A stretch of 63,780 nt of DNA, counting the filler, from an uncultured Methanosarcinales archaeon (lineage in GTDB: Archaea > Nanobdellota > Nanobdellia > Woesearchaeales > CAZKBD01): NCBI GenBank assembly GCA_964550945.1. It is 3 parts of 3 records of this genome, joined end to end, with 100 filler letters (N's around TTAATTAATTAA, not from the genome) between each part and the next. Parts side by side here need not be neighbours in the genome. Positions count along the whole stretch, not along the records: positions 1 to 28,967 come from CAZKBD010000011.1; 2 more parts are not named here. One strand, written 5' to 3'. The notes under the pieces were generated by a model. The model did no database searches and was not told the origin of the DNA. It saw only the letters and a list, made by a program, of their open reading frames with translations. The translations under genes and the position numbers were made by a program. Of this stretch, positions 2,896 through 45,596 are shown one piece after another. Numbering within the stretch: the first letter of the stretch is position 1; each line of letters starts with the position of its first letter.

Positions 2896-3006
2896 AATTC
2901 TAGTTCCAAACTCTTTTTGTTTATTAACTTTTTGCTAAAAAATAAAAACATTTATATATATCTACGCTTATTAATCAGAATATCCAATAAATAGCAATAT
3001 CAAAAA

Positions 3007-3054
3007 TACTAAACTACTAAAATACTAAAATACTAAACTACTAAAATACTAAAA
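3007..3054 (+). repeat. Six tandem 8-bp units TACTAAA(C/A), arranged as 2 x (TACTAAAC TACTAAAA TACTAAAA)
   Basis: Read directly; followed by TTCAGAAAA TCAGAAAA and the ATG at 3071. Confidence 0.9.
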
Positions 3055-3070
3055 TTCAGAAAATCAGAAA

Positions 3071-3232
3071 ATGAAGATAGTCCAAAGCGACATTAGGGGC
3101 CAGATAGTAATACCCAAAAAAATCAGGAAACAGCTGGATATAGGAGAGGAAGCTGCGTTCTGGGTATATGTCGATAATAACAATATAGTTCTGAAGAAAA
3201 TAGAAAAACCTAAGCTGAAAAATGAAAAATAA
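3071..3232 (+). CDS. AbrB/MazE/SpoVT-family DNA-binding protein, 53 aa (not in ORF track)
   Basis: Manual translation MKIVQSDIRGQIVIPKKIRKQLDIGEEAAFWVYVDNNNIVLKKIEKPKLKNEK; GQIVIPKxIR signature; overlaps the start of the giant gene at 3222. Confidence 0.88.
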   Translation: MKIVQSDIRGQIVIPKKIRKQLDIGEEAAFWVYVDNNNIVLKKIEKPKLKNEK

Positions 3233-6200
3233 ATTGTTTTTAGGAAAAAGGAGAGAACACATCAATAGATGGTTACTCTTATTCATAAACTTTAACCTAT
3301 TGATAGGCCTTTCAATCCCTCCCATCTTTGCAGCTGATGATTATACAATCACGCAAGAAGTAACGCAAAATACCCACATTTACGGACAATTCTCTAAAAT
3401 AGAGAAGATTGAAATTCTAGCTAAACCCGACAAGATAGCATCATATGCAGTAATTGGCGGGCCTGTCGAGAGTGCAGAAGAATGCATTACCTCAGATGAA
3501 ATATGTGATGGCAAAGATAATAATTGCAATGGCTTAGTTGATGAGAATTGCCCATGCATTGCTGATGGCAGTTGCCCAACCGGTAATATCTGCCAGAATG
3601 GCGCTTGTTGCGCTAAAAATTACGGATTAACAACAATAAATAATGTGTATGGAAATACTCTCGAATACAGCCCTGGTTTATGGGGAATAAGGCCTCAGAA
3701 CTCTTATGTTGCGGCTTATGCAACCCGAACAATCTATCTTATTCCTTACTCTATCAGCTCAACAACCTCTGTTGATTTATATAATGCCAATCAGACAACA
3801 GGAGAAAGCCTGGGCCAGCCAGGATTATCCGGGCTTAACCACCTAGATAACACAGCAGTAATATTCTTTGATGATTTTGAATCTGCCAAAGCCTACATCA
3901 ATAATGGAGTGTTATGCATTGGATCATACAAAGGAGAACCCCCCATTATTAACAGGCCTAAAATCAAGCCAAATGAAATTATTGTAAAATTCAAAACAGA
4001 TGTTGGAGTCCGAAAAAATGGTTTCTTCAATACAGTCTTTTTGGGGCAGCCTCGAATTGCAACAAATGCTCAATCATTGAATAATTTGAATAAGATGTTC
4101 AACGTAAGAGAGCAAAAACAATTATTCAGCCAAGTAAAGAAACGAACTAGAAATGTTGAGAACAATTATATCTTGGAACTAGAGACCGATGAAAACATAA
4201 GCAATGTTTTAGAAAATTATAAGTCAGATCCAAATGTGGAGTATGCCAGCCTAAATCATTTCTACTCAACATCAACTATCCCCGATGATCCATATTACAG
4301 CACTCAGTGGGCTCACCAAAACATTAATTCAGAGCCAGCGTGGGACATTGAAAAGGGAGATGGAACAGTAATATCAGTAATTGACACTGGCGTTGAATAC
4401 TCCAATCAGGATTTAGCTGGAAACATGCTGGCAGACTGTAATGGTGGATGCCCTCAAGGCACTGGATATAACTTTGTAAATGTAAATATGAGTATTTTTG
4501 ATGATCCATCTCTAGATCCGCTGCCAGGTGAAAATTACTATCCAAGCAACAATCCTTTAGATGTCCACGGCCATGGAACCCATGTTTCTGGGATAATAGC
4601 AGCTGTTTCAAATAATTCTATGGGTGTTGCAGGAACCTGCTGGAACTGCAAAATTATGCCATTGAAGGCTTTGTTTGGCTATATGTCAAATGAGACTGGA
4701 ACATGGCAGGCCTATGCAGGAGGCTATACAAGCGATATAGCAGAGGCAGTATACTATGCAATAGACAATAATGTTTCTGTCATAAGCATGAGTTTTGGAA
4801 GCTATGTTAATGAAACAGAAGATCCTACTCTTTACAACGCAACATTAGCTGCTGCAAATTCTGGCATAATATTAGTGGCTGCAGCTGGAAATGATAATAC
4901 AAGCCAAAAATTATATCCAGCAGCATGGCCTCACGTAATTGCGGTTGCAGCAACTACAAGTTCAGATAATAAGGCAAGCTTCTCAAATTACGGCAGCTGG
5001 GTTGATGTCAGCGCTCCAGGTTACAACATCTCAAGCACCTATATAGGAGACTCATATGCATATATGAGCGGAACATCAATGGCAGCTCCATTTGTTTCTG
5101 GATTAGCTGGATTGATATTGTCAAGGAATCCAAGCTTGGCAAAAGCAGAAGTTGACAGCCTGATAATTGATAATGCAAGGAATATTGACGCAAATAACCC
5201 TAGTTATGTAGGTATGCTTGGATCAGGATTGATAAACCTTTTCCAATCAGTTGAACTTACTCCTGATACTGATTGGCCTATGTTCAAGCAAAATCCAACA
5301 CATTCAGGATATATTTCATCTGCTGCTCCAGATACAAATAATCTATTATGGAAGACATTCATCAACACAACAAAAGTTTCAAATGCAGCAGCATCAAGCC
5401 CTACTCTAGCTGACGGTATAATTTATGCAGGACGTGCATTAACAGATAATGCTACAGTCGGCTTAGTTGCTGTAAATGCAACTACAGGGCAAGTTATCTG
5501 GAACTACAACATTACCGGTATTGGGGCTTCTGTAGTGTCTACTCCTGCAGTTGGCTATGGAAGAGTTTTCTTTGGCTCAGGAAACTTCAATGTCTACGCA
5601 TTGAACAAAACAAATGGAAATCTCTTATGGAGATATAACACTACGGGATTAGTTTTAGGATCACCTACGGTTTTTGACCAAAAAGTGTATATTGCTTCAT
5701 TTACTGGAAATCTCTATGCACTAAATGCAACAACCTCTAATCCAAATGGTGAGTTGATTTGGAGTACTAATGTAGGAAATGTGCCTCATTCAACTCCCGC
5801 CATAAATGAAGGAGTAGTATGTATTGGAAGCGGAAGCGCAGGAGCAGTTCCTGCAAACATCTCTTGCCTCAATGCATTTACAGGAAGTATTCTATGGAAG
5901 TATGGGGCTGGTGGCGGCATATATTCCTCTCCTGCAATAAAGAATGGGATAGTCTATTTTAATTCAGATGATAAACAAGTATATGCATTGAATTTCACAA
6001 ATGGCCAGCGTATTTGGAATTATACTATTGGGCCAAATGGCGCAAGCCCTTCTGTTGCTTTTGGAAGAGCATTCACAATGAATGATATGTCCATATCAGG
6101 AAACAATTTTGGAGATAGGTTCTTATACAGTTTTAATTCAACTACAGGAAATCTATTGTGGAAGTATAATATCACTAGAATCTCTCCAATTGATGGGCAG

Positions 6201-9200
6201 TCAAATGCTCCAAAATCCTCTCCTTCTGTATCATCAGATGGAAAAGTATGTTTTGGGATCGATGGAAAAGGTCCCTTCTGGCCAGCAGGCGCATACAAAA
6301 ACGGATCAGTCGCATGCTTAAACGCTTTAACTAATAATCCAAACGGAGAATTAATCTGGGAATATCAATTTGGAGAGGGTGTCACTGTTGACTCATCCCC
6401 TGCAATAGCCAATAATAAATTGTACATGGTAGCTAGTGATGGTTATTTGTATGCTTTTGGCGATAGTGTTGCTTCAGACACAACACCTCCTTCTTCAGTC
6501 ACTAATCTGCAAAGTAGTGCAATAACAAATTCATCAATTATTTGGTCTTGGATTAATCCTTCGGATGCAGATTTTGACAAGACAATTCTTTATTTGAATA
6601 GTGTTAATGTCGTGAACTTGTCAAAACCAATTGCAAGTTATACTGCAAATGGCTTATTGAACAACACATTGTACAATTTGACTATACATACTGCAGATAA
6701 TTCGGGAAATGTTAACGCAACAAACATACAAAATCTCACTTGGACTTTGCAGAATTCTAACCCTACCCCGCCTGCAGCAATAACTAATTTCACAGTTGAT
6801 GTCACAAATGCCACTTCAAGCACAATCAGCTTAAGCTGGAATCCAGTAAGTGGCGCTGCAAGTTATAATGTTTACATTACTCCAGAGCCAGAAACACTTG
6901 GAAATTATAGCATGATGAAACTGATGGGGAATAATTCTGGAAATACAAACACCACATTTGTAATAAACAATGTTGCAGCAGCAGTTGACACATTCATAAG
7001 AGTTGAAGCAATAAATGATTCTGGGGTTTTTGCTGCAGGAGATGCGCACGCAAAGACAGTTGGTGGGCAAGCAGTAACCCTTGACAATGAATTAAGGGAA
7101 GTGCATATGGTTGCTCCAAACATCATGGAGCTTGTGCTTGAGAACAAAGGCATTAGATTTTATTATGACCCTGCTGCAGGATTTACCACAGGCAGCGTTT
7201 ATTTTGACAATGGGCCTATATGGCAAAATGGGAACTGGCAGATAAGAAAGAAAGACGGCTCGATAATTTCAGTCAATAATATTTATAGGAATTCTTATGC
7301 TGTAAACATGCCTTATTATTTCTTGAACGGGCAGTCAGAAGATAATTTCTTTTATGATATTGACCATAGGGTATTTCTTGTTTTAGACAATAATCTCAGC
7401 CAAAAAGAGATTCTATCTATTGAAGGGCCTTTTAACTTAAATTTCACGCTTTTGTTTAGCGATAATTATCTTGAGACTGATGTGATCCAGGTCAATCAAG
7501 TTGGCTATCATCCAGATGCCACAAAAAGATTTGCTTATGTTTCAATGTGGATGGGTGATGGGCGGGGAATGGACTTTACAGATTATCCATCATACGCTGA
7601 AGTGTTGAAAGAGCCTAATCAAACATTAACCTCAAGAAGCATTGTGCTTTCAAACATAACTCTTGAAAAAAGATATGTTGCAGACTCATGCAATGCATCT
7701 GGAATATTTAATGGCACATGCTACACAGGATGGTATGACAACCAAAATGGCTCAGGAAGCATTTATTATAATTGTACAACTATTGCTAAGTCAAATACAG
7801 TTCCACTGCTTGATTATGATTGTGATACTGATGCAAAAGTAAGGGACATAAACCTTTCAGCGCTTCAACCAAATGATAACTCTTTTAGATATCGTGTCAA
7901 AATTCCAGGAGTTGGAGTCAGTTATCCAACAATGGTAAGCAAAGAGGCTTTCTTTAAAGCTTACTACACTATCGCAAGGGGGATTTATTACAACAGATGG
8001 TGCGGAAATTATTCAACTGAATTCACTGAATGGAGCAGGCCTCCTGACCATTGCTTTGCATATGTAAGCGATGTTCCTGTAAGATGGGCTGCTCAATTCC
8101 CATCAACTACGCCAATATTTGAAACAATGCCTGTAGTTGGAGGCCATAGGGATGCAGGAGATTATGACTTAAGGCCGCATCATACAGGAATCCCTCAAAT
8201 GATAATGAAAGGGTATGAAACTAATAAAAACTCATTAATCAATACTGATAACCAGCTTAACATTCCTGAATCTGGAAATGGGATTCCAGACATACTTGAT
8301 GAAGCATTATGGAATTTAAAGTCATGGGAAGCATTCCAGATGGGAACTGATGGCTTAGGCGATGCTTGTGACTTATGCCCTGATGACACTGAAAATGATG
8401 CTGACGGCGACAAAGTGTGCGCAGGCACAAGATTTAATTCATCAATGATAGCAGGAGGGGACAACTGCCCAAGAAAATATAACCCTCTTCAAGAAGATTT
8501 AGATGGTGATACAATCGGCGATGCATGTGATTCAAGCACAATCATTGACAGGGACTCTGATGGGATAACTGACAATGCAGATAATTGCATTGGAAGCTCA
8601 TTGAAAACAGATACAGACAGCGATTGGGTTGGCGATGCTTGTGATTCTTGCCCAAATGACCCTGAAAATGACATTGATGGTGATTTAATATGTTATGGTT
8701 CTGNNNNNNNNNNNNNNNNNNNNNNNNNNNNNNNNNNNNNNNNNNNNNNNNNNNNNNNNNNNNNNNNNNNNNNNNNNNNNNNNNNNNNNNNNNNNNNNNN
8801 NNNGATGATCCTCTTCCATATTTCACTTATTCTAGAGATCCTAGTGTTACTGCAAGAGTATCTGCTATATTTGCGCAAGCCTCAAGATTATTGAAAGATT
8901 TTGACCAAACACCAATTTGCGGAAACCCAAGATGCAAATCTGATGAGCTTTATAATAGGTCATTAAGGGCTTATAACTATGCATTATACACTCATGCAAG
9001 AGAAGACTTTATGGTTTATGCTGCAAGTGAGCTTTATCTTCTTACTAATGATTCAATCTACAAAACATATCTTGAAAGCAGAAACATTAATGCAGGGAAC
9101 TTTATAGGAAGAAGTGTCGGTTCTACGGAATATGAAGGAGCGCCAGGTACGAGCCCATATTATGCAATTGATTACTTTTCAGGATACCTGCAAAGCAATA

Positions 9201-12200
9201 CCACATTACAAAGCAATCCACCAAGCGCACTGCAATTATTGATCTTAAGCCAAGAAGTAATGCAAACGAATGACGACCTTATCAACACTGAGCTCTTGAA
9301 TGCACACCGAAGCCCAATAACAAGCTCAGGCTGGGGCACTAGTACAACACCTACACTTGCAATACCTGCTTCATTTAATTATTATTTTACTGGAAACTTG
9401 ACTAATGGCTCAAAACAGCAAATATTTGACATGTGGAGTGAGAGCGCTGATTTCATGCTTGGAGCAAATCCTTTTGGCGTTTCTTGGGTTGTTGGGCTTG
9501 GAACAAAATATCCACAAGATGCGCTGCATGTTGACTCACTAGTATTTAAGAAAATGGATATTGGAAAGCAAATGCCAGGAACTGTTGTTTATGGCCCCGG
9601 AAAAAGCCCTTTCTCAGGATTAGATTATTATCGCGCCGTAAAAAAATCAATGTATCCTAATCCAGATAATTATCCTGACAAGCTAAAATATGCTGATGCG
9701 CATACTCAAGTAACAATGGCTGAGTTTGCTGTGCTTGAGACAGATGCTCCTGCACTTGAATTATTTGCTGCGCTAATTAATGCTGGGATGATGCCCCCTG
9801 CTAATTGGGATCCTTATCAGCCAGACCATAAGAATACGCTGCCTGATTTCCCAGTAAAAAACCCTGAAACATTGATAGATACCAGAAACAATGACCTGAA
9901 CTCAATACTTTCATACACCGATGATCTGCCTTTATCCCTTGACCAAAACACAATAGCATTGTATGATCTTGACACCAATTATGAGGATTCTTCATCAAAC
10001 AACCTTGATTTAACTGCTTATGGAAATGCAAGTATCGTAAATATCCCTTCATGGTCTGGAGTCTCAAAAAGCTTTGTCAAGTTTAATGGCAAAGATGATT
10101 ATCTTAAAGTAAGCATCCCTGACAGCATTATACTGCCAACTTCAGGGTTTAATATTACTATTGAAGGAAAATTCTATCCAAAATTCTTCGCTGCTGGGGT
10201 AGGTGTTGAGCAGAACACCTTTATTGGGCTTAACCAGCCTTCCGGATCCAATTTTAAGCTATTAATCCCTCAATGGGAGTACAGATCTCCTTTATTATAT
10301 CTGGATAACAATAAAATAGGGCATGCTAAAGAATGGACAACTAAAGTGGATACATCCAGGTGGCATAATTTTAAGATGATTGCAAAGGGAAATGAATCAT
10401 ACCTTTTTATTGACAATCAACTGATTTTTGCTAACGCCATTAGCCTGTCTTCAGAATGGCAGGATACAGCATCATGGAATCTTGAGCTTGGCCATTTTGA
10501 CGGATATATTGATGAAGTAAAAATAAGCAAAGGCAGCGAGTTTATAGACAATTATCCTCCTGTCTTTGTTGAGCTTTTAGGAACCCAGATCAGGCCTGAT
10601 GAAAGCCTTAACACTAACATTTCTGTCTTTGATGCAACTGGAATCAGCAGTTTATGGATCAATGATACTAACAATTTCCAGATTTCAAGACAAGAGACCG
10701 ATGGAAGAAAAGAAAGATGGCTTCTCAGCAATAAGGTCGCTCTGCAAAATGAAACCTACTATCCAATAAACGTAAGCGTAAATGACACTAGCGGGAATAT
10801 TAATTCTGAGATGATAGTTATATACTCAACATTGCCTTTAGTAGATGCCTCTCCACCTTATTTTGTAAGCGCGCCTAATGCATTAATAAGCTATTTAAGT
10901 CCACTTCATCATCAGATAAGCGCAACTGATGATAGGGGAATTGCAAGATTTGAAGTTAATAACACTCAATTTAAGATTGATAGCTCTGGGCTTTTAGAGT
11001 ATAATGGGATATTCCCTCAGAAAGGAAATTATACTCTAAGGATAACTGTTTATGACACTTCAGAAAAATCTGCAAGCACAGAACTAACTGTGTCAATTGT
11101 GGAAGACCTCATTGCTCCGGTCTTTACCAATATCATAAACCAGTACATTAGGCCATCTATCCCTTTAAGCTATGATATAAACGCAACTGATGACGTTGCA
11201 ATTGGAAGTTTTTCGATAAATGACACCATCAATTTCAAAATCAATGCGAGTTCAGGACTCTTAGAGAATAATACTATCTTATCCTTAGGACAATACTGGT
11301 TAAATGTTTCTGTAAACGATACTTCTGGAAATAGGGCATCTTCAATTTTATTAATTGAGGTTACTTCATCAACTATGTTATTTAGCTGTTTTAATATAAA
11401 TCAGTCTGGAAACTATTTATTAATGAATTCGCTTGTTAATGTTCTGACTTGTATGAACATTACTGCAAGCAATGTCACACTTGACTGCCAAGGCTATACC
11501 CTAGATGGAGATCTAACCGGTGCATCAGGAGATCGCGCAATTTATGCAATAGGCAACAGCACAAATTACTTGAAGAATATAACTGTAAAAAACTGTAATG
11601 TTAAAGAGCTGCAATTTGGCGTTCAATTCAGTTATGTTAATGATTCGGTTATATCAAACACTAATGCTTATTCAGTGTGGTCTAATTCTGGATCAGGAGG
11701 ATTTGACTTTGCCAACACAAATAACCTAATACTCCAAAATATCAGTTCTTACAATCAGGGTTTAGGGTATGGCATATCACTCCCATCTACCTCCAAATAT
11801 AATAATATCACTAATTCAATTATTTATAACACTGCCATAGGAATTAAAATAGGAAGTACTGTCAGCAATATCATTAAGAATTCATATATCTATAATAATT
11901 CTCTTGGAGTTAACAACACCTATGCCTCATCTAGCAATAACCTCTTTTACAATAACCTAATTAATAATACCAATAATCTTAACTTTAATCCAGGAGCAAG
12001 TGCATTATTCAACTCAACACAAACTTCTGGCACAAACATCATTGGCGGAAATTTAATCGGCGGCAATTTCTGGGCAAATCCTTCTGGCAACGGATACTCA
12101 GAGACATGCGCTGATGCTAACAACACAGGCATTTGTGATGTTCCTTTGAATGTAACCTCAAGCACTGCTTGCCCTGGCTGCTCTGGCTATAACATCGATA

Positions 12201-12808: not shown

Positions 12809-12812
12809 AAAA

Positions 12813-15800: not shown

Positions 15801-18800
15801 GGATTTAAGTCTCCAATGATTAGGGACTTTGATAATTGTCCGATGATTTATAATCTAGACCAAAATGATTGTGATAATGATTTTGTAGGTGATGCTTGTG
15901 ATCAAGATAGTTATTGCGCTCAAAAGAATGATACGGATAATGATGGAATTTCGGATTATGCTGATAATTGCGTTGATGTATATAATCCCATTCAAGAAGA
16001 TTACTCTCCTTATGAATCTTTTGGAGTAAGGCAAGGTGTTCAAACATCTGGGCATCTTATGAGTCTTGATGCAAGATATTCAGATGAGGATACCACTCCT
16101 TATTGGACATATTCTAGAAATCCAGCGCATACTGCAAGAGTAGCAGGGTTATTTGCAAAAGCATCTTATTTACTTAAAAATATTGATCAAACTGCATTGT
16201 GTGGAACTCCAACCTGTAAATCAGACGAATTAAAAGAGCGAGCAATTAATGCATTCAACTATTCTTATTCTAATGGAGTTGTAGGAACTTATAATGGCGA
16301 AGTAGAAGACGGTGATAGCTTGTATTTCTTTGCTGCAGGAGAATTATACAGGCTTACAAACGATTCTTACTATCGTAATATCTTTGAGGCGCATTGGAAT
16401 ACAAGTGAAAGTTATAATCAAGGCCCAACTTTCGATCCTTACTTTACTTTTGCATATGCATTGGCTTCTGATAATCAGACAATACTTAACCAGATATTTA
16501 ATAGGTATGACACTTTGGATAATAGTGTATTTGGAGCTGCAAACAAGAAGTATACTGATGGGCAAGTTATTAGAATGGAACTTAATCATGCGCATAGAAA
16601 TCCTAGAGGTGCTGGCCAAAGAGGTGGATGGGGTGCAGAATCAATTGTTGGGCAATACCTTGACAAATCTTATATTAGGCTATATCTTGATTCAATAAGG
16701 CCTTTAACTGCTGCTAAAAAGCAGCAGATAATTGACACTATAAGCATGACTGCGGATTATGTTCTTGGAGGAAACCCTTCAAATTTTGTTTATACTACAG
16801 GACTTGGACAAAATTATCCGCAAGATGCTCTTTGGTGGGACTCTGAATCATTTTATGAAGATGGTTATGGGAATATTCCAGGATATGCTGTATTTGGAAA
16901 TGCAGGTGTTCCATGTTGGGACGGCGGCTATGATATAGTTAATCAGATAACTTTTCCTTATCAATCTAGGATGCCTAACCAGAATAGGTATTTTGATGCA
17001 GGATCAGTTGTCACAAATAATGAAGGCGCTCCTGGGTTAAATTCAGAGTTTCTTCTTGACATAAGCCAATTAATGCCTGCTAACTTTTATACGCCCACTT
17101 CCTGGCTTCCAGGGCAAGAGGATAATAAGAAATCATTAGTAACACTTACTGATATTGATACAACCCCTCCAAGTGCTCCAACAGGATTTTCTGCTGTTAA
17201 GACTGAATCAAAAGTTTCACTTTCATGGAATCCTTCAACTGATGCAGAATCAGAATTATTATGGTATCAGGTTTATAGGGGTGGAAAGCTCATTGGGCAT
17301 ACTAATGCATATAGCGGAGATACTTCTTATGTTGATGAAGGATTAAAATCTAACACTACTTATGAATATAAAGTTGTTTCAGCAAACATAGGGTTTTTGT
17401 TAAGTGACCCAGCTTCTATGTCTGTAACAACAGATATTGATCAGACTGGTCCTGTGATTACTGAATTAGTTTCAAGTATAAATCCTAACATAATAAAGAT
17501 TATCTTTAATGAGCCACTTGATAATATTAGTGCAGAAAACATTAATAGTTATTCAGTCAATAATGGTCTGATAATTTCAGGAGCATATCTTCTTGATGAT
17601 AATATTACGGTTATATTAACAACAAGTGAACAAAAGCCTGATGTTTTGTATAATCTAAACACAACAGGAGTATTAGATAAATCAGGAAATCCTTCACTAG
17701 ATATAATTAGTTATGAATTCTTATGGGATCCTAACTATAATTTAAAAAGAAGAATTTGGAATGGAGAAGGAGTAAACGAAGATCATGTTTCAGTTGGCTA
17801 TGGCAGCATTATTAATGTTTCTGCTATGCCTAATGATGTGTTTCAGGGAAATTATTCATTTAAAGGAACTCCAACTAATTATTATGATCCTTTAATTAAT
17901 TTTTTTACAATTGAAAGAATTAGGACTGAGATATATAGAAAAGATATTACTGATTATGACACATTAATTTTCTGGGCAAAATCAGATCAGTCAGGAAGAT
18001 CATTCACTCTAAGATTGGGAAGTTATGATTCTGCAACAAATAATATTGATATACTTCCGTTTATAGAGGGAGGCACACTTGATGCAGCTTATAGAAAAGT
18101 GGTTATTCCTTTTATTAATTTGACTAATGATAATCATATCTTTAAATCAGGGTTAGAAACATTTTATCTTGGGAAATTAGGTAATCCTGATTACTCAATA
18201 TTTATCGATGATATTTGGGTTGTGGATCAAAATTTAGTTGATACTGTAAACCCTTCTTTTAAGTCTATCTGGAATATTACTGTAGCTTACATTTATAATA
18301 TCAGTGAGGATTATGAGGCTGTTGATTTAAGCGGAATTGACACTTACTGGGTTAATGACAGCAGGTTTAATATTAGCAATACTGGCTTGTTTAAGTTTAG
18401 TGTAGGTAATCCTGGTGTGGGTGTGTATTTTGTTAATGTTAGTGCTAATGACACTGTAGGTTATTCTGTTTCTGAAGCGGTTATAGTTAATATAACTGAT
18501 GATGTTATTCCACCTCAGTTTACTAATATTTATAATTTTAGCGTGCCTGATAATGAGACTTTTTATCATGACTTTGATGCAACTGACAATATTAATTCAG
18601 AATGCAATGGCTTGACTTATACTGTCAGTGATTCTAATTTTGCCATAAACTGTTCTGGGGTTATAAGGAGGGGTACTAATCCTTTATCTGTTCGTGATTA
18701 TATTCTTAATGTGACTGTTACTGATGTTTCAAGAAACTTTGTTTATCAAACAATTAATGTTAGTGTGCTTAATAGTACTGGCCCTGATGTTACTGCGCCT

Positions 18801-21800
18801 GTTTTTACTAATTTAAATGATTTGACAATTAGTTATGGCAATATCCTAGGATACAATATTGATTCTTTTGATGATCGAGGCACTGAGTGCAATGGAATTA
18901 GTTATTCTATTAATGACTCTAGGTTCTTTATTAACTGCACTGGCTTGTTGATGTTTGACTGGAATGCCCTTGTTAAAGGGGCTTATTCTGTTAATATTGC
19001 TGCTTTTGATTCTGCAAATAACTCTGTTTCAAAGATTATTGCAGTAAACATTGTTCAGGATAATATTCCGCCGTCTTTTATTGGCTTAAGGAATAGGGCT
19101 ATTAATTATGGCGCAAACTTGTATTATGAGTTTGATACGCAGGATGATGTTGGAGTAGATAATGCATGGATTAATGATACTGTAAGGTTTAAGTTGAGTA
19201 GAACTAATGGAAGCAAGTTTCTGCTTGAGAACAACACTGTTCTTAATTTGGGTTATTATTGGTTGAATGTTAGTGTTAATGATACTAGCGGCAACCAGTT
19301 TAGTAGTCAGATTGAGGTTTGGGTTACTGAGAATATTGTCATTACTGGATGCACATCCATCGATTCTTCAGGGGATTATGTTTTGATCAATGATATCACT
19401 AATTATCATGGCAGTTGTATTAAGATTAATGCAAGCAATGTAACATTTAATTGCGGGGGTTATGCTATTGATGGTGATGATAGCTCAAATAGTGTTGGCC
19501 TGCTTATTGAAGGGATTAATAGCTCAAGCAAATTGAAGAATGTTTATGTTTCTAATTGTTTTATTTCTGATTTTGATAAGGGATTAAAGATGAATAATGT
19601 TGACAATTCTAGTGTAACTGATATCGAGGTTAATTCCAATATTGATGGGTTTGTTCTTTATACTGCAAAATATAACTTGTTTAATAATGTCAACTCTATA
19701 AATAATACTGATGATGGATTTGAGATGAGTGCTTGGAGTGCTAATGCGGAGTATAATAATTTTACAAAAGGAGTTATTAAGGATAATAAGGATTGTGGTA
19801 TTAATGTCAATCAGGATGGGTATTATAATCGGTTTTCTAATTTTAGCATTATAGGTAANNNNNNNNNNNNNNNNNNNNNNNNNNNNNNNNNNNNNNNNNN
19901 NNNNNNNNNNNNNNNNNNNNNNNNNNNNNNNNNNNNNNNNNNNNNNNNNNNNNNNNNNATTGAGAAAAATATAAGTTTAGACTGTCTTGGAAATACGATT
20001 GATGGAACTGATGTTTATACTGATTATGGAATTAGGATCATTAGTGGCTTGGTGAATGTTTCTGTTAGTAATTGTATTGTTAATGATTTTGGCAAGGGAG
20101 GCATTTATTCTGAGGCCTCTAATTCCTCTTTTTCCAATGTTTTTATTAGTTCTGGCAGCTATGCTGGAGGCAATACAGGCAATGCGTTTACTGTTACTGG
20201 ATCATATAATGTTTTGAGTGGGATTAATGTTTCTGAGACTGTGGGCCATGGTATTGTGATTGGAGGGGATTTTAATAATCTAAGTGGAGGCTTTGTTGCA
20301 GGTTCATATAATGGTTCGTATAGTGGAATTTATATCAATGCTAATGCTAACAATAATACTATTACTGGCTTTAAGGTTTATAATAATTCAAACAGCGGGG
20401 TTTATTTTGATTCTGTCAATTCCAATAATAACTTTTTTTATAATAACTTTTTTAATAATTCGCTTAATGTTAATAATTCAGTTAATGCTAACAATTATTT
20501 CAGCACAACAAACCAATCTGGCACAAACATTATTGGCGGAAACTTGATTGGAGGCAACTTCTGGGCAAATCCTTCTGGTACTGGATACTCACAGACTTGT
20601 GCTGATGTAAACAGCACTGGATTCTGTGATGCTCCTCTAAATGTTTCTTCAAGCCTTGCTTGCCCTGGCTGCTCTGGCTATAACATCGATATGCTGCCTT
20701 TGACTTTGGGTGTTGTTGCTGACACAACCCCTCCAGCTTCAGTCACTAATCTGCAAAGTAGTGCAATAACAAATTCATCAATCAACTGGACTTGGACAAA
20801 TCCTTTAGATGCTGACTTTAACAAGACAATCCTTTATCTGAATTCAATTAACATTGTGAACTTGTCAACACCAATTGTGAGTTATACTGCAACAAGCCTT
20901 ACAAATAACACTTTATACAACCTAACTATCCATACTGCAGATAATTCTGGAAACATAAACACAACAAACATACAAAACCTATCTTGGACTTTGCAGAATG
21001 GTGTAGTTTGCGTTGATAATGATGCTGATGGCTATAACATAACAGGCGGCTCTTGTGGTTTAGTTGACTGCAACGATACTAATTCCAATATCAATCCCGG
21101 CGCTGTTGAGGTTTGCGATGATAACCAGGACAATAATTGCAATAGCCAGGCTGATTGCAATGACACTGCTTGCACAGGACAGCCTTCCTGTTTTGCTTTC
21201 CCTGTTTACCCAAATGTAACAGCAGGCACTGAAATAAATATTACTATTGAAGGAGATAATTGTACTGGCAGGGAAGTAAATCTAAACTATCTTGAGATTG
21301 ATTTCTTTACCAATAATGATTCAATCAGCGGTTATGGATTGCCAGCAACAGCAACATTTACTCTAAACAAAACAAAAACCCCATGGGTTGCTCAGTGGTT
21401 TAATGATACTGATGGGGAGAATAACATTAATCCAGAGCTCCAATTCATTGCTGACTGTAATGGAAGCCAAATTTCTTCAAACATTATCGAGATAACTCCT
21501 TCAGAAGTAGCTTGTATAGATTCTGATAGTGACGGCTATAATGTCACAAGCCCAGTTTGCCAAACTGGCGATGATTGCGATGATTCTGATCCTATTGAGC
21601 ATCCAGGCCAAGTTTGGTATAGGGATGCAGATAGCGATTTATACAGCAATGGCTCAACCTTAACGCAATGCCTAAGGCCAGCTTTATACAACATTTCAAC
21701 AGAGCTAACAGCAACCTCTGGAGATTGCGATGACACTAATGCCAACGTAAACCCAATTAGAACTGAAATCTGCAACAATATTGATGACAACTGTGCTGGA

Positions 21801-24800
21801 GGAATAGATGAGGGAGTCTTATCAACATTCTATAGAGACTTTGATTCAGATACTTTCGGCAACTTAACAAACACGATCCAGAACTGTACAGCCCCAGCAG
21901 GATATGTAGCAAACAACACAGATTGCAATGATTATATAACTACTATCTACCCAGAAGCGCCAGAATTATGCAATGGCATCAGTGATGACTGCGATGCTGC
22001 TGTTGACGAAATATTCACAAACGAAAGCTGCTCATTTGTTTGTATTGCATCAAGCTTCAACTGGTCTAATAATGGGGGTAATCTAAACTGCTGCGGCAAC
22101 AACCCAGGAGAAGATAATCCCTATCAAACAACTGAAATAATATGCAGTGATACAAGAGACAATGATTGCAATGGCTTAACAGATTTAAATGATCCTTCCT
22201 GCATAAGCTGTGTTGATGATGACAATGATGGATATAATGCCACAAGCCCAGTCTGCCCAAGCGGCAATGATTGTAATGACAACAACAACTTAACTTATCC
22301 AGGAGCAATTGAAATATGCGATAATGATGACAACAATTGCGATGGCACTATAGATAATATTACCCAATCTTGCGGCTCAGGCGCTTGTGCTGGCAATCAA
22401 CTATGCACTTTAGGAGCTTGGAGCAATTGCTCAACTTACGGCCTTGATACAGGAATATGTGCTGTTTGTAATGCTAATGGAAGTGAAATTTACGATTCAA
22501 GCCAAAACACAGATTGCATAGCAACAGCCTGCCCTTCAGATGGCTGCGGCTTAGGCAGCTGCAATGCAAACATATTTGCTGACTACCCAATAAGCGTGCC
22601 AAACCAATGCTCTGCAATCTACACTTGCACTTCAAATATATGCGCAGCAGCCTGTGAACCAGATAATGATTATGATAATTATTCTCCAAGCTGCGGTGAC
22701 TGCAATGACAATACTAACATCACTTACCCAGGAGCCCTGGAAATCTGCGATACTTTAGACAATGACTGCAATTCTGGAACAGCTGATGGCAGCAGTGAAC
22801 TATGGCTGGGCCAAAGCTGTGATGGCCCTGATTCAGACCTTTGCAATGAAGGGACTTTCATCTGCAATACTGGCTCGCAATCTTGCTCAGACTCAACCTC
22901 AAACAACATTGAACTGTGCAACAGCATTGATGATGACTGCAATCCTCTAACAACAGATGGCATTAATGAGCCATGGTACAGCCAGCCAACAAGCTGTGGA
23001 GTTGGAGCTTGCCAGGGAGCTGTAGGGCAACTAACCTGCACAGCTGGATCACAATACAACACCTGCAACCCATACTTGAATGCAACCAATGAAAGTTGTG
23101 GTGATAATAGCGGTTATGACGGAATAGACAACAATTGTGATGGTACAATAGACCTAAACTGTGAATCCTATTGCGACCAGGATAATGATACTTACTCACC
23201 GCATATGATCTGCGCTCTTGCAGGTTATGGCATTAATGATTGTTATGACAATGACGCAAACATCAATCCTGGAATGCCTGATTTATGCAATAGCATAAAT
23301 GATGATTGTGATTCAAGCCCTGACGGCATAGATGAGCCTTGGTACAATAACCCAACAACATGCGGCGTAGGTGTTTGCGCAAATACCGGTAACTGGCTTT
23401 GCATTGCAGGAAATGCAGCTGACACATGCGCAGCAGGAACTCCAACAGGCAATGATGATAATTGTAATGGCCTGGATGAGAACTGCAATAGCATAGCTGA
23501 TGAAAACTACATTCCAACTCAAACAACTTGCGGGATTGGTGAATGCATAAGAACCGGGCAGCTAGTCTGCATTAGCAGTGATGAAATTAACAATTGCGTT
23601 CCTGGAGCACCTCAACCAGAAATTTGCGATGAGTTAGACAACAATTGCAATAGCCAGGCAGATGAAGGAGTTACAACAACTTATTACCAGGATATTGATA
23701 ATGATGCTTATGGAAATTCAACTGTTACAATTGAAGCATGCTCGCTGCCATTCGGATATGCAGGGCAAAATAGTGACTGCAATGACCTTAACAGCTATAT
23801 CAATCCAGCTGCTGCTGAATTATGCAATGGGATTGATGACAACTGCAACATAACTGTTGATGAAGGCTTCACAAACGAAGCATGCAGCTATGTTTGCGAA
23901 TCAAATGCATTTATCTGGACAAATAACAATGGCAGCTTAAGCTGCTGCGGAGATAATATCTTAGAGGATTCTCCATATCAACTAACAGAAACTAACTGCA
24001 CTGATGGGAATGACAACGATTGCAATGGCTTGGCTGATTATAATGATCCTGTCTGTTATGAATGCGTTGATGCAGATACTGACACATTCTTTGCAATATC
24101 CCCTATTGCATGCCCAACAGGAAATGACTGCAATGATAATAACGCAACCATAAACCCAAATGCAGCTGAAATCTGTGATGGCCTTGATAATAACTGCAAT
24201 GCTCAAACAGACGAAACATTCGCTAATACTGATGGAGACGAATTAGCCGATTGTGTTGATCCAGATGATGATAATGACAGCGTAAATGACGCAACTGACA
24301 ATTGCCTATTAGTTCCAAATGCAAATCAAACAGATTCTGACGATGATAATCTAGGAGATGCCTGTGATATATATCCATTTGACCATGATAACGACGGATT
24401 TAATATAACAATAGACTGCGATGATTATGATATATCAATAAACACCACTTATTCCAGAGCTTGCGGCCAGAATATCGGAACTTGCACAGTTGGCAATCAA
24501 TCCTGCGCTGATGGTGTTTGGGCAGAATGCACAGGAAGATCTCCTGAAAATGAGACATGCAACAGCCTTGATGACAATTGCGATGGAAGAATAGATTGTA
24601 TAGAAAACTGCACATCTCCTATTAATCTGATGACACAAAGATACATCAACTTTAATTATACCAATCCATTTATGTTATACATCCCAGATTACGGAAAAAT
24701 TACCTTCACTGAAAATATCACCTTTGCTTGCGGAGCTGATATAGACTATCTGACAAACATTAACAAAGCTAAGATATCCATAGACTCAGGGGTTATCCCA

Positions 24801-25763
24801 GAATTAAACAAATCAGCGCGCATAGAATTGTATAACATTTCATTTAGTCACCCTCAAATATTAAGAGATAGCGCCATCTGCCCACCCTCAATTTGCACAA
24901 TCATAAACTACACTAATGGCACTTTAATCTTTGATGTGGCTCATTTCACAACCTATGAGGTTAGTGAGTCAGCCTATTGCGGAGATGGCATTTGCAATGG
25001 AGATGAGGCAAATGCAGATTGTCCGGCTGATTGCCCATCTTCAGGCAGCCCAGGTGGCAGTGGAGGTGGCGGAGGAGGCATCTCAGGAGGAGATGTCATT
25101 GGCGAGCAAAGATGCACTGAAAACTGGGACTGCTCAAGCTGGTCAGAATGCACGCCTCAGCAGCTGAGCTACAGGGTATGCACTGATTTAAATGATTGCG
25201 GCACAACTTTGTTCAAGCCATTCGAATCCAAATGGTGCTATTTCCCTGCTGCAGAAAATGTTACTGTACAAGAAAACATCACTGAAGAACAGCCATTATT
25301 AAGCCCAGAGCCAGAGCCTTTGTTGAGCATAAGCGCCAGAAAGATATCAGATGACTACATGCTTGTTTCTTTTGACATAACAAACCTAGACCCAACTATC
25401 GACCTCAACACAGCAGCGATAGAACTCAATATAAACAAAGGCAGAAGGACTTATTATGTTGACTATTTAGATAAGCTTAAGATAAGGGCAGGCGCCAATT
25501 TAGTGATTGAAAAAGAATATCCTACAAGATACTTAAGCAATGATATTTACGAAATTAAAGCAACATTATTCGGCAAGGGCTTTAAGAAAGCAGTTACAAC
25601 AACAAATATAGATTTGAATAAAGATGAACCCGGTAATAGGATTACCGGAGATGTTGTTGGAGACACTAACCCGCAACCAAGCCCTTTCAAATTCATCAAT
25701 CTAGCCCTGATAATTTTAATATTAATTGTAGCTTTTAAACTAAGGAGTATAAAAAAGAGGTGA
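12813..25763 (+). CDS. Giant membrane-anchored multi-domain protein 2: FN3-like, GH9 with ~410-aa TSP3 insert, FN3, Ig-like, CBM-like, beta-helices, many Cys-rich metal-binding repeats, TSP3, HFT domain, Gly linker, C-terminal TM; spans the N gap at 19859-19958
   Basis: Signal peptide ending PVAVA; QVNQLGY, DAGD (14595), IPESGNGIPDLLDE, DYVLGGNP, TNNE; repeated GDACD and DCND...ELCNGIDDNC motifs; C-terminal INLALIILILIVAFKLRSIKKR. Confidence 0.85.
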   Translation: MAIQYKKLMKMKLIDVSKLLVFAWLILSLFLAPVAVAGQYNNLEFIKTENVAYDVVLPGNFAKLEPITHSDGFTKNSRISLYAGPGLAFPVDVINISSSTISLSWNPVSGAASYNIYITPEPETLGNYTWMKLMGNNSGNTNTTFIIKDVAAAVDTFIRVEAINASGVFAAGDAYARTIGGQLAQIEFEYGNRNKLDTPLKEIHLASPNIIHLILFNPEVHSYSGINNWIDDGVNEVINYTGWDWHAGNWSVTRKNGDHINVTKVFRRSVPAGQFDPDYASYLEFDHHIYLVLDEQVGNSEILQISHSGGANNPDSFELDHPCMSNTKTLFGKNEVSTDLNLTLLFSDKYLVSSSIQVNQLGYNPITTKRYAYVSDWMGLDLNGNASGVPLDNYPAFAFVFNSSSSILSTKQPMINNIPLKIRYQWDLGNKSGIWNGSCFIGNFTGPVWNGSELVNETVEKYYNCTVNSYSPWVMPAVDYDVDVGGQVREINLSGLPESDTDTYQVYVPGVGVSYPTRVSELGIQKAWYVFERGMYQNRWGRDLQPQWTDWTRAGTDHPYVYTSERRDAGYVGRVYFPSYTPQVGKRELQGGHHDAGDLDLQVGHYANGLRLLTAYELNPDAYRDGQLTIPESGNGIPDLLDEGLYSIHLWEQLQENNDNVGNACDVCPDDPENDVDGDGICKLGSFSSPMIGTNDNCPWHYNPSQTDTNGDGIGDACDTKNIFDSDNDSILDNVDKCITISNANQSDSDKDGIGDACDLCPDDAENDVDGDGFCKGSRFIAPMIGKNDTCSNKYNPYQSDCDNDTIGDACDDNNNLAICTRAINVDNKGYLDTDSDTIYDHLDNCIIVSNPSQLDSDNDTIGDACDLPNIPPTLNSDSDFILNDGDNSGNTTDNRCTGGNKINCDDNCPTKYNPDQADIDHDRIGDACDNYNAFDYDGDDATYYYYSYAHYFDNCIEMPNQGQEDYDSDEVGDACDPCFSDPSNDVDGDRVCVGDGFKSPMIRDFDNCPMIYNLDQNDCDNDFVGDACDQDSYCAQKNDTDNDGISDYADNCVDVYNPIQEDYSPYESFGVRQGVQTSGHLMSLDARYSDEDTTPYWTYSRNPAHTARVAGLFAKASYLLKNIDQTALCGTPTCKSDELKERAINAFNYSYSNGVVGTYNGEVEDGDSLYFFAAGELYRLTNDSYYRNIFEAHWNTSESYNQGPTFDPYFTFAYALASDNQTILNQIFNRYDTLDNSVFGAANKKYTDGQVIRMELNHAHRNPRGAGQRGGWGAESIVGQYLDKSYIRLYLDSIRPLTAAKKQQIIDTISMTADYVLGGNPSNFVYTTGLGQNYPQDALWWDSESFYEDGYGNIPGYAVFGNAGVPCWDGGYDIVNQITFPYQSRMPNQNRYFDAGSVVTNNEGAPGLNSEFLLDISQLMPANFYTPTSWLPGQEDNKKSLVTLTDIDTTPPSAPTGFSAVKTESKVSLSWNPSTDAESELLWYQVYRGGKLIGHTNAYSGDTSYVDEGLKSNTTYEYKVVSANIGFLLSDPASMSVTTDIDQTGPVITELVSSINPNIIKIIFNEPLDNISAENINSYSVNNGLIISGAYLLDDNITVILTTSEQKPDVLYNLNTTGVLDKSGNPSLDIISYEFLWDPNYNLKRRIWNGEGVNEDHVSVGYGSIINVSAMPNDVFQGNYSFKGTPTNYYDPLINFFTIERIRTEIYRKDITDYDTLIFWAKSDQSGRSFTLRLGSYDSATNNIDILPFIEGGTLDAAYRKVVIPFINLTNDNHIFKSGLETFYLGKLGNPDYSIFIDDIWVVDQNLVDTVNPSFKSIWNITVAYIYNISEDYEAVDLSGIDTYWVNDSRFNISNTGLFKFSVGNPGVGVYFVNVSANDTVGYSVSEAVIVNITDDVIPPQFTNIYNFSVPDNETFYHDFDATDNINSECNGLTYTVSDSNFAINCSGVIRRGTNPLSVRDYILNVTVTDVSRNFVYQTINVSVLNSTGPDVTAPVFTNLNDLTISYGNILGYNIDSFDDRGTECNGISYSINDSRFFINCTGLLMFDWNALVKGAYSVNIAAFDSANNSVSKIIAVNIVQDNIPPSFIGLRNRAINYGANLYYEFDTQDDVGVDNAWINDTVRFKLSRTNGSKFLLENNTVLNLGYYWLNVSVNDTSGNQFSSQIEVWVTENIVITGCTSIDSSGDYVLINDITNYHGSCIKINASNVTFNCGGYAIDGDDSSNSVGLLIEGINSSSKLKNVYVSNCFISDFDKGLKMNNVDNSSVTDIEVNSNIDGFVLYTAKYNLFNNVNSINNTDDGFEMSAWSANAEYNNFTKGVIKDNKDCGINVNQDGYYNRFSNFSIIGXXXXXXXXXXXXXXXXXXXXXXXXXXXXXXXXXXIEKNISLDCLGNTIDGTDVYTDYGIRIISGLVNVSVSNCIVNDFGKGGIYSEASNSSFSNVFISSGSYAGGNTGNAFTVTGSYNVLSGINVSETVGHGIVIGGDFNNLSGGFVAGSYNGSYSGIYINANANNNTITGFKVYNNSNSGVYFDSVNSNNNFFYNNFFNNSLNVNNSVNANNYFSTTNQSGTNIIGGNLIGGNFWANPSGTGYSQTCADVNSTGFCDAPLNVSSSLACPGCSGYNIDMLPLTLGVVADTTPPASVTNLQSSAITNSSINWTWTNPLDADFNKTILYLNSINIVNLSTPIVSYTATSLTNNTLYNLTIHTADNSGNINTTNIQNLSWTLQNGVVCVDNDADGYNITGGSCGLVDCNDTNSNINPGAVEVCDDNQDNNCNSQADCNDTACTGQPSCFAFPVYPNVTAGTEINITIEGDNCTGREVNLNYLEIDFFTNNDSISGYGLPATATFTLNKTKTPWVAQWFNDTDGENNINPELQFIADCNGSQISSNIIEITPSEVACIDSDSDGYNVTSPVCQTGDDCDDSDPIEHPGQVWYRDADSDLYSNGSTLTQCLRPALYNISTELTATSGDCDDTNANVNPIRTEICNNIDDNCAGGIDEGVLSTFYRDFDSDTFGNLTNTIQNCTAPAGYVANNTDCNDYITTIYPEAPELCNGISDDCDAAVDEIFTNESCSFVCIASSFNWSNNGGNLNCCGNNPGEDNPYQTTEIICSDTRDNDCNGLTDLNDPSCISCVDDDNDGYNATSPVCPSGNDCNDNNNLTYPGAIEICDNDDNNCDGTIDNITQSCGSGACAGNQLCTLGAWSNCSTYGLDTGICAVCNANGSEIYDSSQNTDCIATACPSDGCGLGSCNANIFADYPISVPNQCSAIYTCTSNICAAACEPDNDYDNYSPSCGDCNDNTNITYPGALEICDTLDNDCNSGTADGSSELWLGQSCDGPDSDLCNEGTFICNTGSQSCSDSTSNNIELCNSIDDDCNPLTTDGINEPWYSQPTSCGVGACQGAVGQLTCTAGSQYNTCNPYLNATNESCGDNSGYDGIDNNCDGTIDLNCESYCDQDNDTYSPHMICALAGYGINDCYDNDANINPGMPDLCNSINDDCDSSPDGIDEPWYNNPTTCGVGVCANTGNWLCIAGNAADTCAAGTPTGNDDNCNGLDENCNSIADENYIPTQTTCGIGECIRTGQLVCISSDEINNCVPGAPQPEICDELDNNCNSQADEGVTTTYYQDIDNDAYGNSTVTIEACSLPFGYAGQNSDCNDLNSYINPAAAELCNGIDDNCNITVDEGFTNEACSYVCESNAFIWTNNNGSLSCCGDNILEDSPYQLTETNCTDGNDNDCNGLADYNDPVCYECVDADTDTFFAISPIACPTGNDCNDNNATINPNAAEICDGLDNNCNAQTDETFANTDGDELADCVDPDDDNDSVNDATDNCLLVPNANQTDSDDDNLGDACDIYPFDHDNDGFNITIDCDDYDISINTTYSRACGQNIGTCTVGNQSCADGVWAECTGRSPENETCNSLDDNCDGRIDCIENCTSPINLMTQRYINFNYTNPFMLYIPDYGKITFTENITFACGADIDYLTNINKAKISIDSGVIPELNKSARIELYNISFSHPQILRDSAICPPSICTIINYTNGTLIFDVAHFTTYEVSESAYCGDGICNGDEANADCPADCPSSGSPGGSGGGGGGISGGDVIGEQRCTENWDCSSWSECTPQQLSYRVCTDLNDCGTTLFKPFESKWCYFPAAENVTVQENITEEQPLLSPEPEPLLSISARKISDDYMLVSFDITNLDPTIDLNTAAIELNINKGRRTYYVDYLDKLKIRAGANLVIEKEYPTRYLSNDIYEIKATLFGKGFKKAVTTTNIDLNKDEPGNRITGDVVGDTNPQPSPFKFINLALIILILIVAFKLRSIKKR
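19859..19958. other. Assembly gap (100 N, true length unknown)
   Basis: N run; the flanks belong to two different beta-helix domains, so the real gap is probably longer than 100 bp. Confidence 0.99.
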
Positions 25764-25767
25764 AAAG

Positions 25768-26058
25768 ATGGTATATATTTTTGGTATAGACATCCCCCTG
25801 ATGGAACTTTTGTTGGTGTATTCGTTTTTGGCTTCGTATTTCCTCATCTTAGTGTTCCTCCAGATGAGAAAACTCTCTAGGCTGATGAAACTAGAGAAAG
25901 GGGATATAGAGCTGATGGAAAAGCAAAGCAGCGATCCTGTTGACAAGTTTATCAATGAAGCAAGAAAAAGAGGATATTCAAAAAAAGAAGTTAAGAAATT
26001 GCTCATTGATAATGGATGGGAGAAGGAAGAGGCTGATAGGGTGCTGGTTAGATACTAA
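25768..26058 (+). CDS. Small membrane protein, last gene of the giant-protein operon
   Basis: GAGGTGA SD, starts 4 nt after the upstream stop, N-terminal TM, C-terminal RGYSKKEVKKLLIDNGW helical motif. Confidence 0.75.
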   Translation: MVYIFGIDIPLMELLLVYSFLASYFLILVFLQMRKLSRLMKLEKGDIELMEKQSSDPVDKFINEARKRGYSKKEVKKLLIDNGWEKEEADRVLVRY

Positions 26059-26224: not shown

Positions 26225-26483
26225 AATTCATTTGTTATGCATAAATAAGATGGCCAAAAAATGATCTTAAGAATGTAGTTACTAGTGAAAAGATAACCTC
26301 AGCCGCAAAAATACTTGGTGTTGAGAGAAGAATTATTGAGCAAGTAATTGACTTAATAATATCATGATATCACTCAAAGAGTTAGTAATCCAGAAAGAGG
26401 TTGATAAGGCGTTTAGTAAAAAACCTAAATATACGAAATAAGATACGTAAAATTTATAAATAATACGAAATATACAACTTAAA

Positions 26484-45297: not shown

Positions 45298-45468
45298 AAC
45301 CACTAGTATTGTCTACTAATATAAAAGAATAACTGTTGCAACATTATAGAAGAATTTATCCTGGCATAATCAATCAACCAACTCTGTCAAACGTATCCAG
45401 GTTTTCATCAATACGCCTTCTTAAGAATCTGCTGCTTTCATGCCAGATCCTATTAGCATACCTGTTTT

Positions 45469-45596
45469 GATATGTCAGAAATATACTGGCCGTCTAATTG
45501 ACTGATGGACAAAGTCCAATACATTTGGTGATTATAGTATATTTATGAGCATGCTCAAGAACACGCCCCCTACTTTAGTGGGGCGGTTCTTGACAT
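45469..45596. mobile_element. Twin-hairpin palindromic element, copy 2 (centre TGAGCATGCTCA 45546-45557)
   Basis: TCAGAAATATACT/AGTATATTTATGA and TCAAGAAC-A-CGCCCC/GGGGCG-GTTCTTGA stems; same GATATGTCAGAAA end as copy 1. Confidence 0.7.

Follow-up and report, generated by a model that had tools for sequence, protein, structure and literature searches.

Structural knowledge of glycoside hydrolase family 9 (GH9) relevant to this work comes from enzymes of the CelD/CbhA type, i.e., CelD of C. thermocellum (1CLC/4CJ0), the metagenomic endoglucanase 3X17 and CbhA (1UT9). Self-cleaving microbial surface proteins are represented by the MAIN proteins, for which the main text of the describing preprint reports cleavage and retention with GAIN-like domains, the order signal, adhesion or enzyme domains, autoproteolytic domain and anchor, a frequent pairing of a glycoside hydrolase with a lectin, and a release model (bioRxiv 10.64898/2026.05.12.724683). 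Giant Omnitrophota proteins and those of predatory Woesearchaeota are likewise large multi-domain surface proteins in which TSP3 repeats occur together with hydrolases and peptidases, and their main texts propose a role in attachment and envelope degradation (bioRxiv 10.1101/2023.11.21.568195; PMC9723730). In this study we analyzed a window of 63,780 nucleotides (the whole stretch of DNA, filler included) from an uncultured archaeon of the order Woesearchaeales (GCA_964550945.1) and describe an operon encoding two giant proteins, A/B (A before and B after a scaffold gap) and C. Both contain a GH9 barrel interrupted by TSP3 repeats, an insert of about 410 aa in C.

Compared with the CelD/CbhA type, the GH9 domains of the locus share the fold (predicted for C, Z 33.9), the DAGD motif, the C-terminal catalytic Glu and the PESGN.IPD loop. 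They differ in an identity of about 21%, a TSP3 insert (188-415 aa) that divides the barrel and two extra N-terminal beta-sandwiches; the domain in C (GH9-C) also has a His-to-Trp exchange. A further domain of both giants matches, as a profile, the autoproteolytic domain (APD) of Nup98/Nup145 (PF04096, MEROPS S59) end to end, including the HF-S site (hyphen at the cleavage point; E 6e-8). In contrast to these nucleoporins, the domains of the locus are extracellular, have an invariant Cys pair, and their cleavage is a prediction. They also differ from the GAIN-like MAIN domains by this match to Nup98, and the terms 'nup98' and 'nucleoporin' are absent from the main text of the MAIN preprint. 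The Pacearchaeota protein P0054 (MFA5992709.1) shares the order fn3-like, GH9, fn3, Ig, beta-helix, MopE and transmembrane (TM) segment, with 38-43% identity in the GH9 N-half, but is a single gene of 1825 aa without TSP3 insert, S8 protease or Nup98-type domain. According to their main texts, the Omnitrophota and predatory Woesearchaeota proteins are at least 30,000 aa long or rely on GH23/TlyC; 'GH9' is absent from both texts, and from the two texts on Woesearchaeal lifestyle in which the term was sought.

All modules can be assigned to known families, and there is precedent for anchored hydrolase-adhesins that cleave themselves. No paper on a TSP3-split GH9, on its fusion to S8 or on GH9 in Woesearchaeota was found among main texts, and as far as this literature goes these features appear new; such proteins may be listed in supplementary CAZyme tables (PMC8421398; PMC9723730; PMC8091004) or in the tables of the MAIN preprint.

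Two GH9 Barrels Split by TSP3 Repeats

The original prediction, made from the DNA alone, had assigned two domains to GH9, each with DAGD and a candidate catalytic Glu. Both assignments hold; the division of both barrels by TSP3 and the autoproteolytic domains were not part of that prediction. PF00759 scores 61 and 52.7 bits (cut-off 27.7), in each case from the C-half only; DAGD lies at 8151-8162 in GH9-A and at 14595-14606 in GH9-C, and the Glu codons at 9722 and 17022 align with the 'NEITV' Glu of CbhA 1UT9, which we take to be catalytic. The local Pfam copy scores only the C-halves of split GH9s and misses the homologue P0122, which is present in the precomputed list of the database.

Among 230 proteins from two homologue searches, 179 have both GH9 halves. 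The linker between the halves measures 13-43 aa in 177 of them and 204 aa in P0122, the one remaining value being a two-domain artefact; by the same measure it is 433 aa in GH9-C. A further split GH9 with a TSP3 insert, P0231, stands outside this set. Insert lengths amount to 415 aa in C, 188 aa in P0122 and 191 aa in P0231, versus 4 aa for P0054 and for P0008. The insert begins right after the WExxQ helix and in the same TSP3 repeat phase in all four split proteins (A, C, P0122 and P0231), and the split halves cover positions 45-505 and 506-866 of the GH9 profile without loss. Because this phase is shared, the alignments make a single origin of the insert likely; the insert-bearing group has a support of 80 with one insert-free row inside, and FastTree places P0122 with P0054. 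The insert of C consists of DxDxDG..DACD-type units with 22% Asp and 7% Cys. We ruled out that it is an assembly artefact, given that it is free of N and that the independent P0122 and P0231 share it. Contigs span the N-terminal insert junction of A (one piece, 7498-8638) and the C-terminal junction of C; none of the pieces listed spans the N-terminal junction of C.

In an AlphaFold2 (AF2) model of C residues 345-1445 both barrel halves are confident. The model aligns with CelD 4CJ0/1CLC at Z 33.9 (rmsd, root-mean-square deviation, 2.6; 504 residues aligned; model range 13-1090) across the insert, which suggests that the halves of GH9-C re-form the Ig plus (alpha/alpha)6 fold of CelD; by homology, GH9-A/B would have the same barrel and Ig domain. 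The loop at the insertion site also varies in length between CelD and CbhA. GH9-C keeps 109 of the 125 columns that are conserved across 83 homologues with an uninterrupted barrel, compared with 106 in the uninterrupted P0054. The nearest solved relatives are endoglucanases, and the GH9 structures matched also include a xyloglucanase, a xanthanase and an exo-glucosaminidase.

A recent duplication as the origin of A and C was not supported: their GH9 N-halves are 49% identical, and C groups with P0231 (SH-aLRT, Shimodaira-Hasegawa-like approximate likelihood ratio test, 91). Separately, DNA patches of 77-85% identity between A/B and C (6466-6755/20710-20999, 6788-7070/13077-13358 and 11936-12223/20427-20720) far exceed this protein identity of 49% and suggest recent module exchange.

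Distribution of the GH9

The two split barrels are the only GH9 matches in the genome (G000). Searches with the profile of this subfamily gave no match among 400 further genomes of the order and among 400 from the phylum (overlapping samples), and PF00759 reached its cut-off in 0 of the 400 other genomes of the order, with a weak match below it in G165. Of the architecture that had been proposed for a search in other Woesearchaeota, the S8/giant chassis is common in the order, and a GH9 was found in none of the 400. Elsewhere in the phylum GH9 does occur: P0054 bears a Pacearchaeota name, P0008 the label 'archaeon', and in loci L089, L090 (P0231) and L093 the neighbors of the GH9 gene look archaeal, genomic context being absent for P0122. 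Named bacterial relatives belong to Hydrogenedentes, Patescibacteria, Omnitrophota, Myxococcota, Bipolaricaulota and others. Trees of the N-half place the four split proteins in one clade together with P0054, P0008 and proteins from Patescibacteria (FastTree support 0.98 with 161 rows; SH-aLRT 95 in a quick search of a 47-row subset). An S8 motif was present among the 230 relatives only in P0062, a copy of A, which is also the sole PF00082 match among 52 long relatives, and none of the GH9 homologues scanned has the Nup98-type domain.

Two archaeal or probably archaeal proteins, P0008 and P0001, carry an N-terminal dockerin-like segment instead of TSP3 (weak Dockerin_1 match in P0008, E 0.01). 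The record titles of L011, L021 and L030 (Gammaproteobacteria, Nitrospiraceae) are at odds with their tree neighbors; the L011 GH9 groups with a Patescibacteria protein, and L011 and L094 have an smc/rpsP neighborhood in common.

A Native Chassis With a Nup98-Type Domain

By Pfam, A contains S8, a PQQ propeller, fn3 and TSP3, and B contains GH9, a NosD beta-helix and MopE; C has GH9, fn3 and TSP3 in its first part and MopE and NosD in its second. Hydrophobic segments are N-terminal in A and in C and C-terminal in C, with none in B. The predicted intact D/H/S triad of the subtilase was recovered (D388, H451 and S619, with N557 as oxyanion Asn); its best solved match is Ak.1/thermitase (E 2e-48), and the prodomain match is weak (E 0.01). 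The LamG match in A/B stays below cut-off (E 0.008), and the CBM-like (carbohydrate-binding module-like) module of C has neither a Pfam nor a PDB sequence match. The N-terminal accessory region of GH9-C was also considered as a CBM; only fn3/Ig folds were returned, with the second sandwich barely covered. Eleven DC[ND]D-type motifs occur in the MopE stalk of C.

Giant size and subtilases are nothing unusual in the order. This genome alone contains 20 open reading frames (ORFs) of at least 1500 aa and six with an S8 motif, and the S8/propeller query matches 71 of 151 genomes (counting G000 and the unpublished G131); this commonness rules out either feature as the surprise of the locus. Also common is the domain of 130 aa at the end of B and before the anchor of C, found in 60 of 121 genomes (counting G000 and the unpublished G111), often in ORFs of 2000-10000 aa. 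Its profile, built from the two window copies and 28 of 29 fetched relatives, has human Nup98 APD (2Q5X) as best match. PF04096 matches 23 of these 30 members (E up to 0.5, best 1e-9), the two window copies individually scoring below cut-off. Phe is kept in 25, Ser/Thr in 26 and His in 9 of the 28 relatives, and both window copies have all three (HFS at 12734, HFT at 24942). Both giants carry a Nup98-type autoproteolytic domain with an intact site, for which self-cleavage is predicted. Two further such domains of the genome, on C41 and C62, both lack the His (GFT; QFN). B ends just past HFS (12781-12808) in a stretch that resembles the start of another DPANN Ig-like domain, and judging from this sequence A/B may be a truncated, formerly anchored gene.

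Function of the Locus

Of the original proposal, the GH9 identity, the intact S8, the DPANN host and a surface role in attachment and degradation are supported. The apparatus envisaged as a single chain consists of two giants, A/B having no membrane anchor. We give an even chance to the reading that they are releasable, contact-dependent adhesin-hydrolases directed against the glycan and protein coats of neighboring cells, their presumed substrate. Two Sec-exported, probably N-glycosylated surface giants would then be built on a native Woesearchaeal display chassis of S8, propeller, beta-helix, MopE stalk, Nup98-type domain, TM anchor and protein D, to which a rare GH9 from a DPANN/CPR-containing clade would have been added. 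Each GH9 would form an active, inverting beta-glycanase of the CelD type, and its TSP3 insert would bind Ca2+ and protrude from the barrel at the surface loop 'MQ..DG', which is variable. Held by its TM segment, C would cut itself at HF-T, its ectodomain of about 4000 aa staying non-covalently attached until pulled off, and A/B would be secreted without an anchor, adding a broad protease beside the second GH9. Via CBM-like, LamG, beta-helix, TSP3 and MopE modules the pair would bind the coat of a neighbor or an aggregate and cut beta-glucan-type extracellular polymeric substance (EPS) or sheath together with its proteins, the gain being access or detachment rather than sugar. The AbrB-type gene at the head of the operon is probably autoregulated through 8-bp repeats.

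In favor of coat degradation, searches of the genome, which is 92% complete, found no GH1, GH3, GH94, SBP_bac_1 or Sugar_tr (nor SLT, the last of six families sought), a GH73 peptidoglycan hydrolase (glucosaminidase) ends a 2032-aa ORF (G000:C1:43291-43494, L100), and the closest GH9 clade unites archaeal and Patescibacteria proteins. Predation has been proposed for Woesearchaeota in the main text of PMC9723730.

Several observations weigh against coat degradation. ROK kinase, enolase and GH57 are present, so that imported sugar would be usable and an unrecognised transporter is possible, and no SLT accompanies the GH73. The GH9 subfamily is also found in non-parasites, e.g., Hydrogenedentes, Bipolaricaulota and Planctomycetota, and the ORF lists inspected for the loci of its relatives reveal no common neighborhood. 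The TSP3 insert is unmodelled in AF2 (predicted local distance difference test, pLDDT, mostly <50), and the conserved substrate-binding His near the C-terminus of GH9-C is Trp (Trp1351), the corresponding residue being kept in B (HxD motif, ALHVDS). Finally, P0062, 99.7% identical to A and from another assembly, runs 123 aa past gap 1 and stops without a C-half.

Tethered foraging comes second and is clearly less probable. Here the cell would bind particulate beta-glucan, cellulose or proteinaceous detritus and free oligosaccharides or peptides for itself or a partner, the autoproteolytic joint letting the enzymes remain on the particle. A glycoside hydrolase with a CBM-like module, a self-cleaving joint and an anchor is the layout that the main text of the MAIN preprint proposes for scavenging (bioRxiv 10.64898/2026.05.12.724683), and main texts propose particle-associated heterotrophy for these archaea (PMC8421398; PMC8091004) and fermentative heterotrophy for some Woesearchaeota (PMC8421398). 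The endoglucanase character of the nearest solved relatives and the ROK, enolase and GH57 genes fit as well. However, no beta-glucosidase, cellobiose phosphorylase or classical sugar importer was found in the genome, and it has no GH9 beyond this pair; the earlier suggestion of particulate polysaccharide as food is weakened accordingly.

It is unlikely that the giants are mainly adhesins whose GH9 barrels act as slow or inactive glycan binders or help the cell to detach by trimming its own attachment matrix. The large insert in the barrel, the Trp of GH9-C, the change of DAGD to DAAD in the other two split proteins (P0122 and P0231), and a cohesion protein (the MtsC model, matched below its cut-off) as best match of the TSP3 repeats would agree with such a use. 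Nevertheless, both GH9s of the window keep both Asp and the Glu, and GH9-C is as conserved as uninterrupted homologues.

An extension of coat degradation, which we regard as rather improbable, holds that a bacteria-attacking Woesearchaeon has a self-releasing attack apparatus with a GH9 made Ca2+- or force-gated by the TSP3 repeats inside its barrel, and docking of A/B on the C stub. Once both giants had cut themselves, A/B minus its last 22 residues would bind the free strand of the C membrane stub by beta-strand exchange, and the pair would strip bacterial beta-glucan EPS and surface protein ahead of GH73. Modeling of the B domain without its last strand together with the C stub peptide gave a weak 0.54 versus 0.03 for the best control, with at least 91% of contacts agreeing between runs and a partner pLDDT of at least 53. 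Of 157 solved complexes 116 attain the mark used, as do 2 of 215 mismatches, but those at 0.60 or below comprise only 18 of the solved complexes and both mismatches, and in this modeling the score may reflect likeness to Nup98 complexes only.

Assembly, Continuity and Host

The sizes originally given, >3100 and >4200 aa, stand as minima (at least 3161 and 4292 aa are known), the full lengths being inferred across 100-N gaps. At gap 1, A stops in TSP3 after profile position 505, and B, which has no signal peptide, picks up the profile at 528; contigs run beyond 8703 with TSP3-like letters. Gap 2 is flanked by partial beta-helices, and the domain order of C matches that of the uninterrupted P0054 (from GH9 to TM) and P0122. 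From these continuities A/B is very probably one gene, and C probably so. The least probable of the readings is that a gene boundary lies in one or both gaps, in which case S8 and a complete GH9 would be on separate chains or C would consist of two genes. This would suit the lack of a contig piece across either gap among those listed, the end of P0062 after gap 1, and one contig in which 20656 is linked with 12166 by an exact repeat of 46 bp. Against it stand the matching profile ends, the split GH9s of C, P0122 and P0231 uninterrupted by gaps, the gap-free fusion of S8 to the GH9 N-half, the extra tail of P0062 (absent from G000 beyond the first TSP3 repeat and changing character at a repeat motif, as in a chimera), and the 46 bp being the longest exact repeat in the locus. 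The simplest explanation of the join is a crossing in the assembly graph.

The locus is real and sited in a Woesearchaeon. Positions 1-28967 of the window are contig C11 of a 1.97-Mb genome (2% contaminated), and C11 carries the sole threonyl-tRNA synthetase (ThrRS) of the genome. Among 120 ThrRS homologues listed, 15 bear an organism name, 14 being Woesearchaeota and one Nanoarchaeota, in agreement with the DPANN host originally predicted. Mis-binning of C11 was ruled out by this ThrRS and a flank tetranucleotide r of 0.98; the low r of the giant locus resembles that of other giant genes. At least half of the sampled words are present in four groundwater metagenome runs, which derive from two samples of a single study and may be the very source, and no RNA run holding them was among the matches listed. 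A PcrB match in the genome presumably represents a HisA-type barrel, as its motif suggests; no geranylgeranylglyceryl phosphate (GGGP) synthase was identified.

Operon Layout and Neighboring Genes

As predicted, a tightly packed regulator, two giants and a small TM protein follow each other in this order, overlapping or a few bases apart (Table 1). The true start of C is possibly 12813 or 12837. The 8-bp repeats, the only run of their unit in the genome, are a candidate operator; a sigma-70 promoter scan returned nothing, its model being bacterial and suited to no archaeon. Of 100 further genomes, 5 contain homologues of protein D (6 of 101 including G000), directly 3' of a large surface-type ORF in all four loci with a standalone copy and fused to the C-terminus of a large protein in two, which suggests that protein D natively accompanies anchored surface proteins in the order.

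Table 1. Features of the operon and their positions in the window
Feature	Position	Strand	Evidence or remark
Tandem 8-bp repeats, 6-7 copies	3003..3055	+	TRF period 8, 6.6 copies, 91%; just upstream of regulator
AbrB/MazE-type regulator, 53 aa	3071..3232	+	PF04014 E 8e-7; TIGR01439 over cut-off; overlaps start of A
Giant A/B, at least 3161 aa, signal peptide, no membrane anchor	3222..12808	+	Profile continuity across gap 1
Thermitase-type S8 subtilase, preceded by prodomain	4356..5186	+	PF00082 E 1e-54
PQQ/BamB-like beta-propeller	5271..6461	+	PF13360 E 6e-37
fn3 after propeller	about 6492-6710	+	E 8e-9
fn3-like and beta-sandwich domains, CelD-like Ig, GH9-A N-half	6789..8339	+	Profile A1 positions 46-505
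TSP3 insert in GH9-A barrel	8340..8703	+	Runs into gap 1; same junction in P0062
Scaffold gap 1, 100-N placeholder	8704..8803	.	True gap probably at least ~190 bp
GH9-A C-half	8804..9844	+	PF00759 E 2e-16; profile 528-866
LamG/ConA-like (weak), Ig/cadherin-like repeats, NosD-type beta-helix, one MopE repeat	9926..12376	+	
Nup98-type domain (predicted), HF-S	12386..12781	+	Ser codon 12740; 22 residues after site
Giant C, at least 4292 aa, N-terminal signal, C-terminal TM	12783..25763	+	One gene across gap 2 inferred
fn3, second beta-sandwich, CelD-like Ig, GH9-C N-half	13065..14780	+	AF2 pLDDT 90.6; fn3 Z 12.5
TSP3 insert in GH9-C barrel, ~410 aa, free of N	14781..16019	+	PF02412 E 2e-20, 6 stretches
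GH9-C C-half	16020..17117	+	PF00759 E 6e-14
fn3, Ig, CBM-like module, Ig repeats, first beta-helix	17172..19858	+	
CBM30/CBM4_9-like galactose-binding-fold module	17730-18242	+	Atlas features 0.96
Scaffold gap 2, 100-N placeholder	19859..19958	.	Between two partial beta-helices
Second beta-helix, fn3, long Cys/Asp-rich MopE-repeat stalk	19959..24550	+	PF05048; PF11617 E 1e-70
Nup98-type domain (predicted), HF-T	24606..24983	+	Thr codon 24948; would leave 271-aa membrane stub
C-terminal TM anchor and basic tail	25674..25760	+	Hydropathy 2.44
Membrane protein D, 96 aa	25768..26058	+	

Divergent from the operon, 2053-2895 (-) encodes a 280-aa protein without Pfam or NCBIfam match that has KKRGQ at its start, which we take to be a class III (pilin-like) signal. 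Downstream lie an AAA_14/DUF4143 ATPase and a BatA-VWA gene (26484-27791 and 27930-28967) and a 32-bp near-duplicate at 26426-26485. The end of contig C13 (54523-57814) holds a 1115-aa ORF whose DNA is strongly repetitive internally (68% over 1.6 kb), and short intergenic repeats at 36370-36533, 45448-45596, 58146-58271 and 59771-59857 have many copies on other contigs.

Implications

A GH9 barrel that tolerates a calcium-binding-type insert of 190-415 aa, kept in at least three genomes, would be an unusual enzyme architecture and offers a ready test of insert-dependent regulation. Because the barrel is split, annotation of such enzymes is weakened, only C-halves being scored and P0122 being missed by local Pfam. 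The finding bears on what Woesearchaeota feed on and what they attach to: the substrate of the enzyme domains, which can be excised, would point to the partner or the food.
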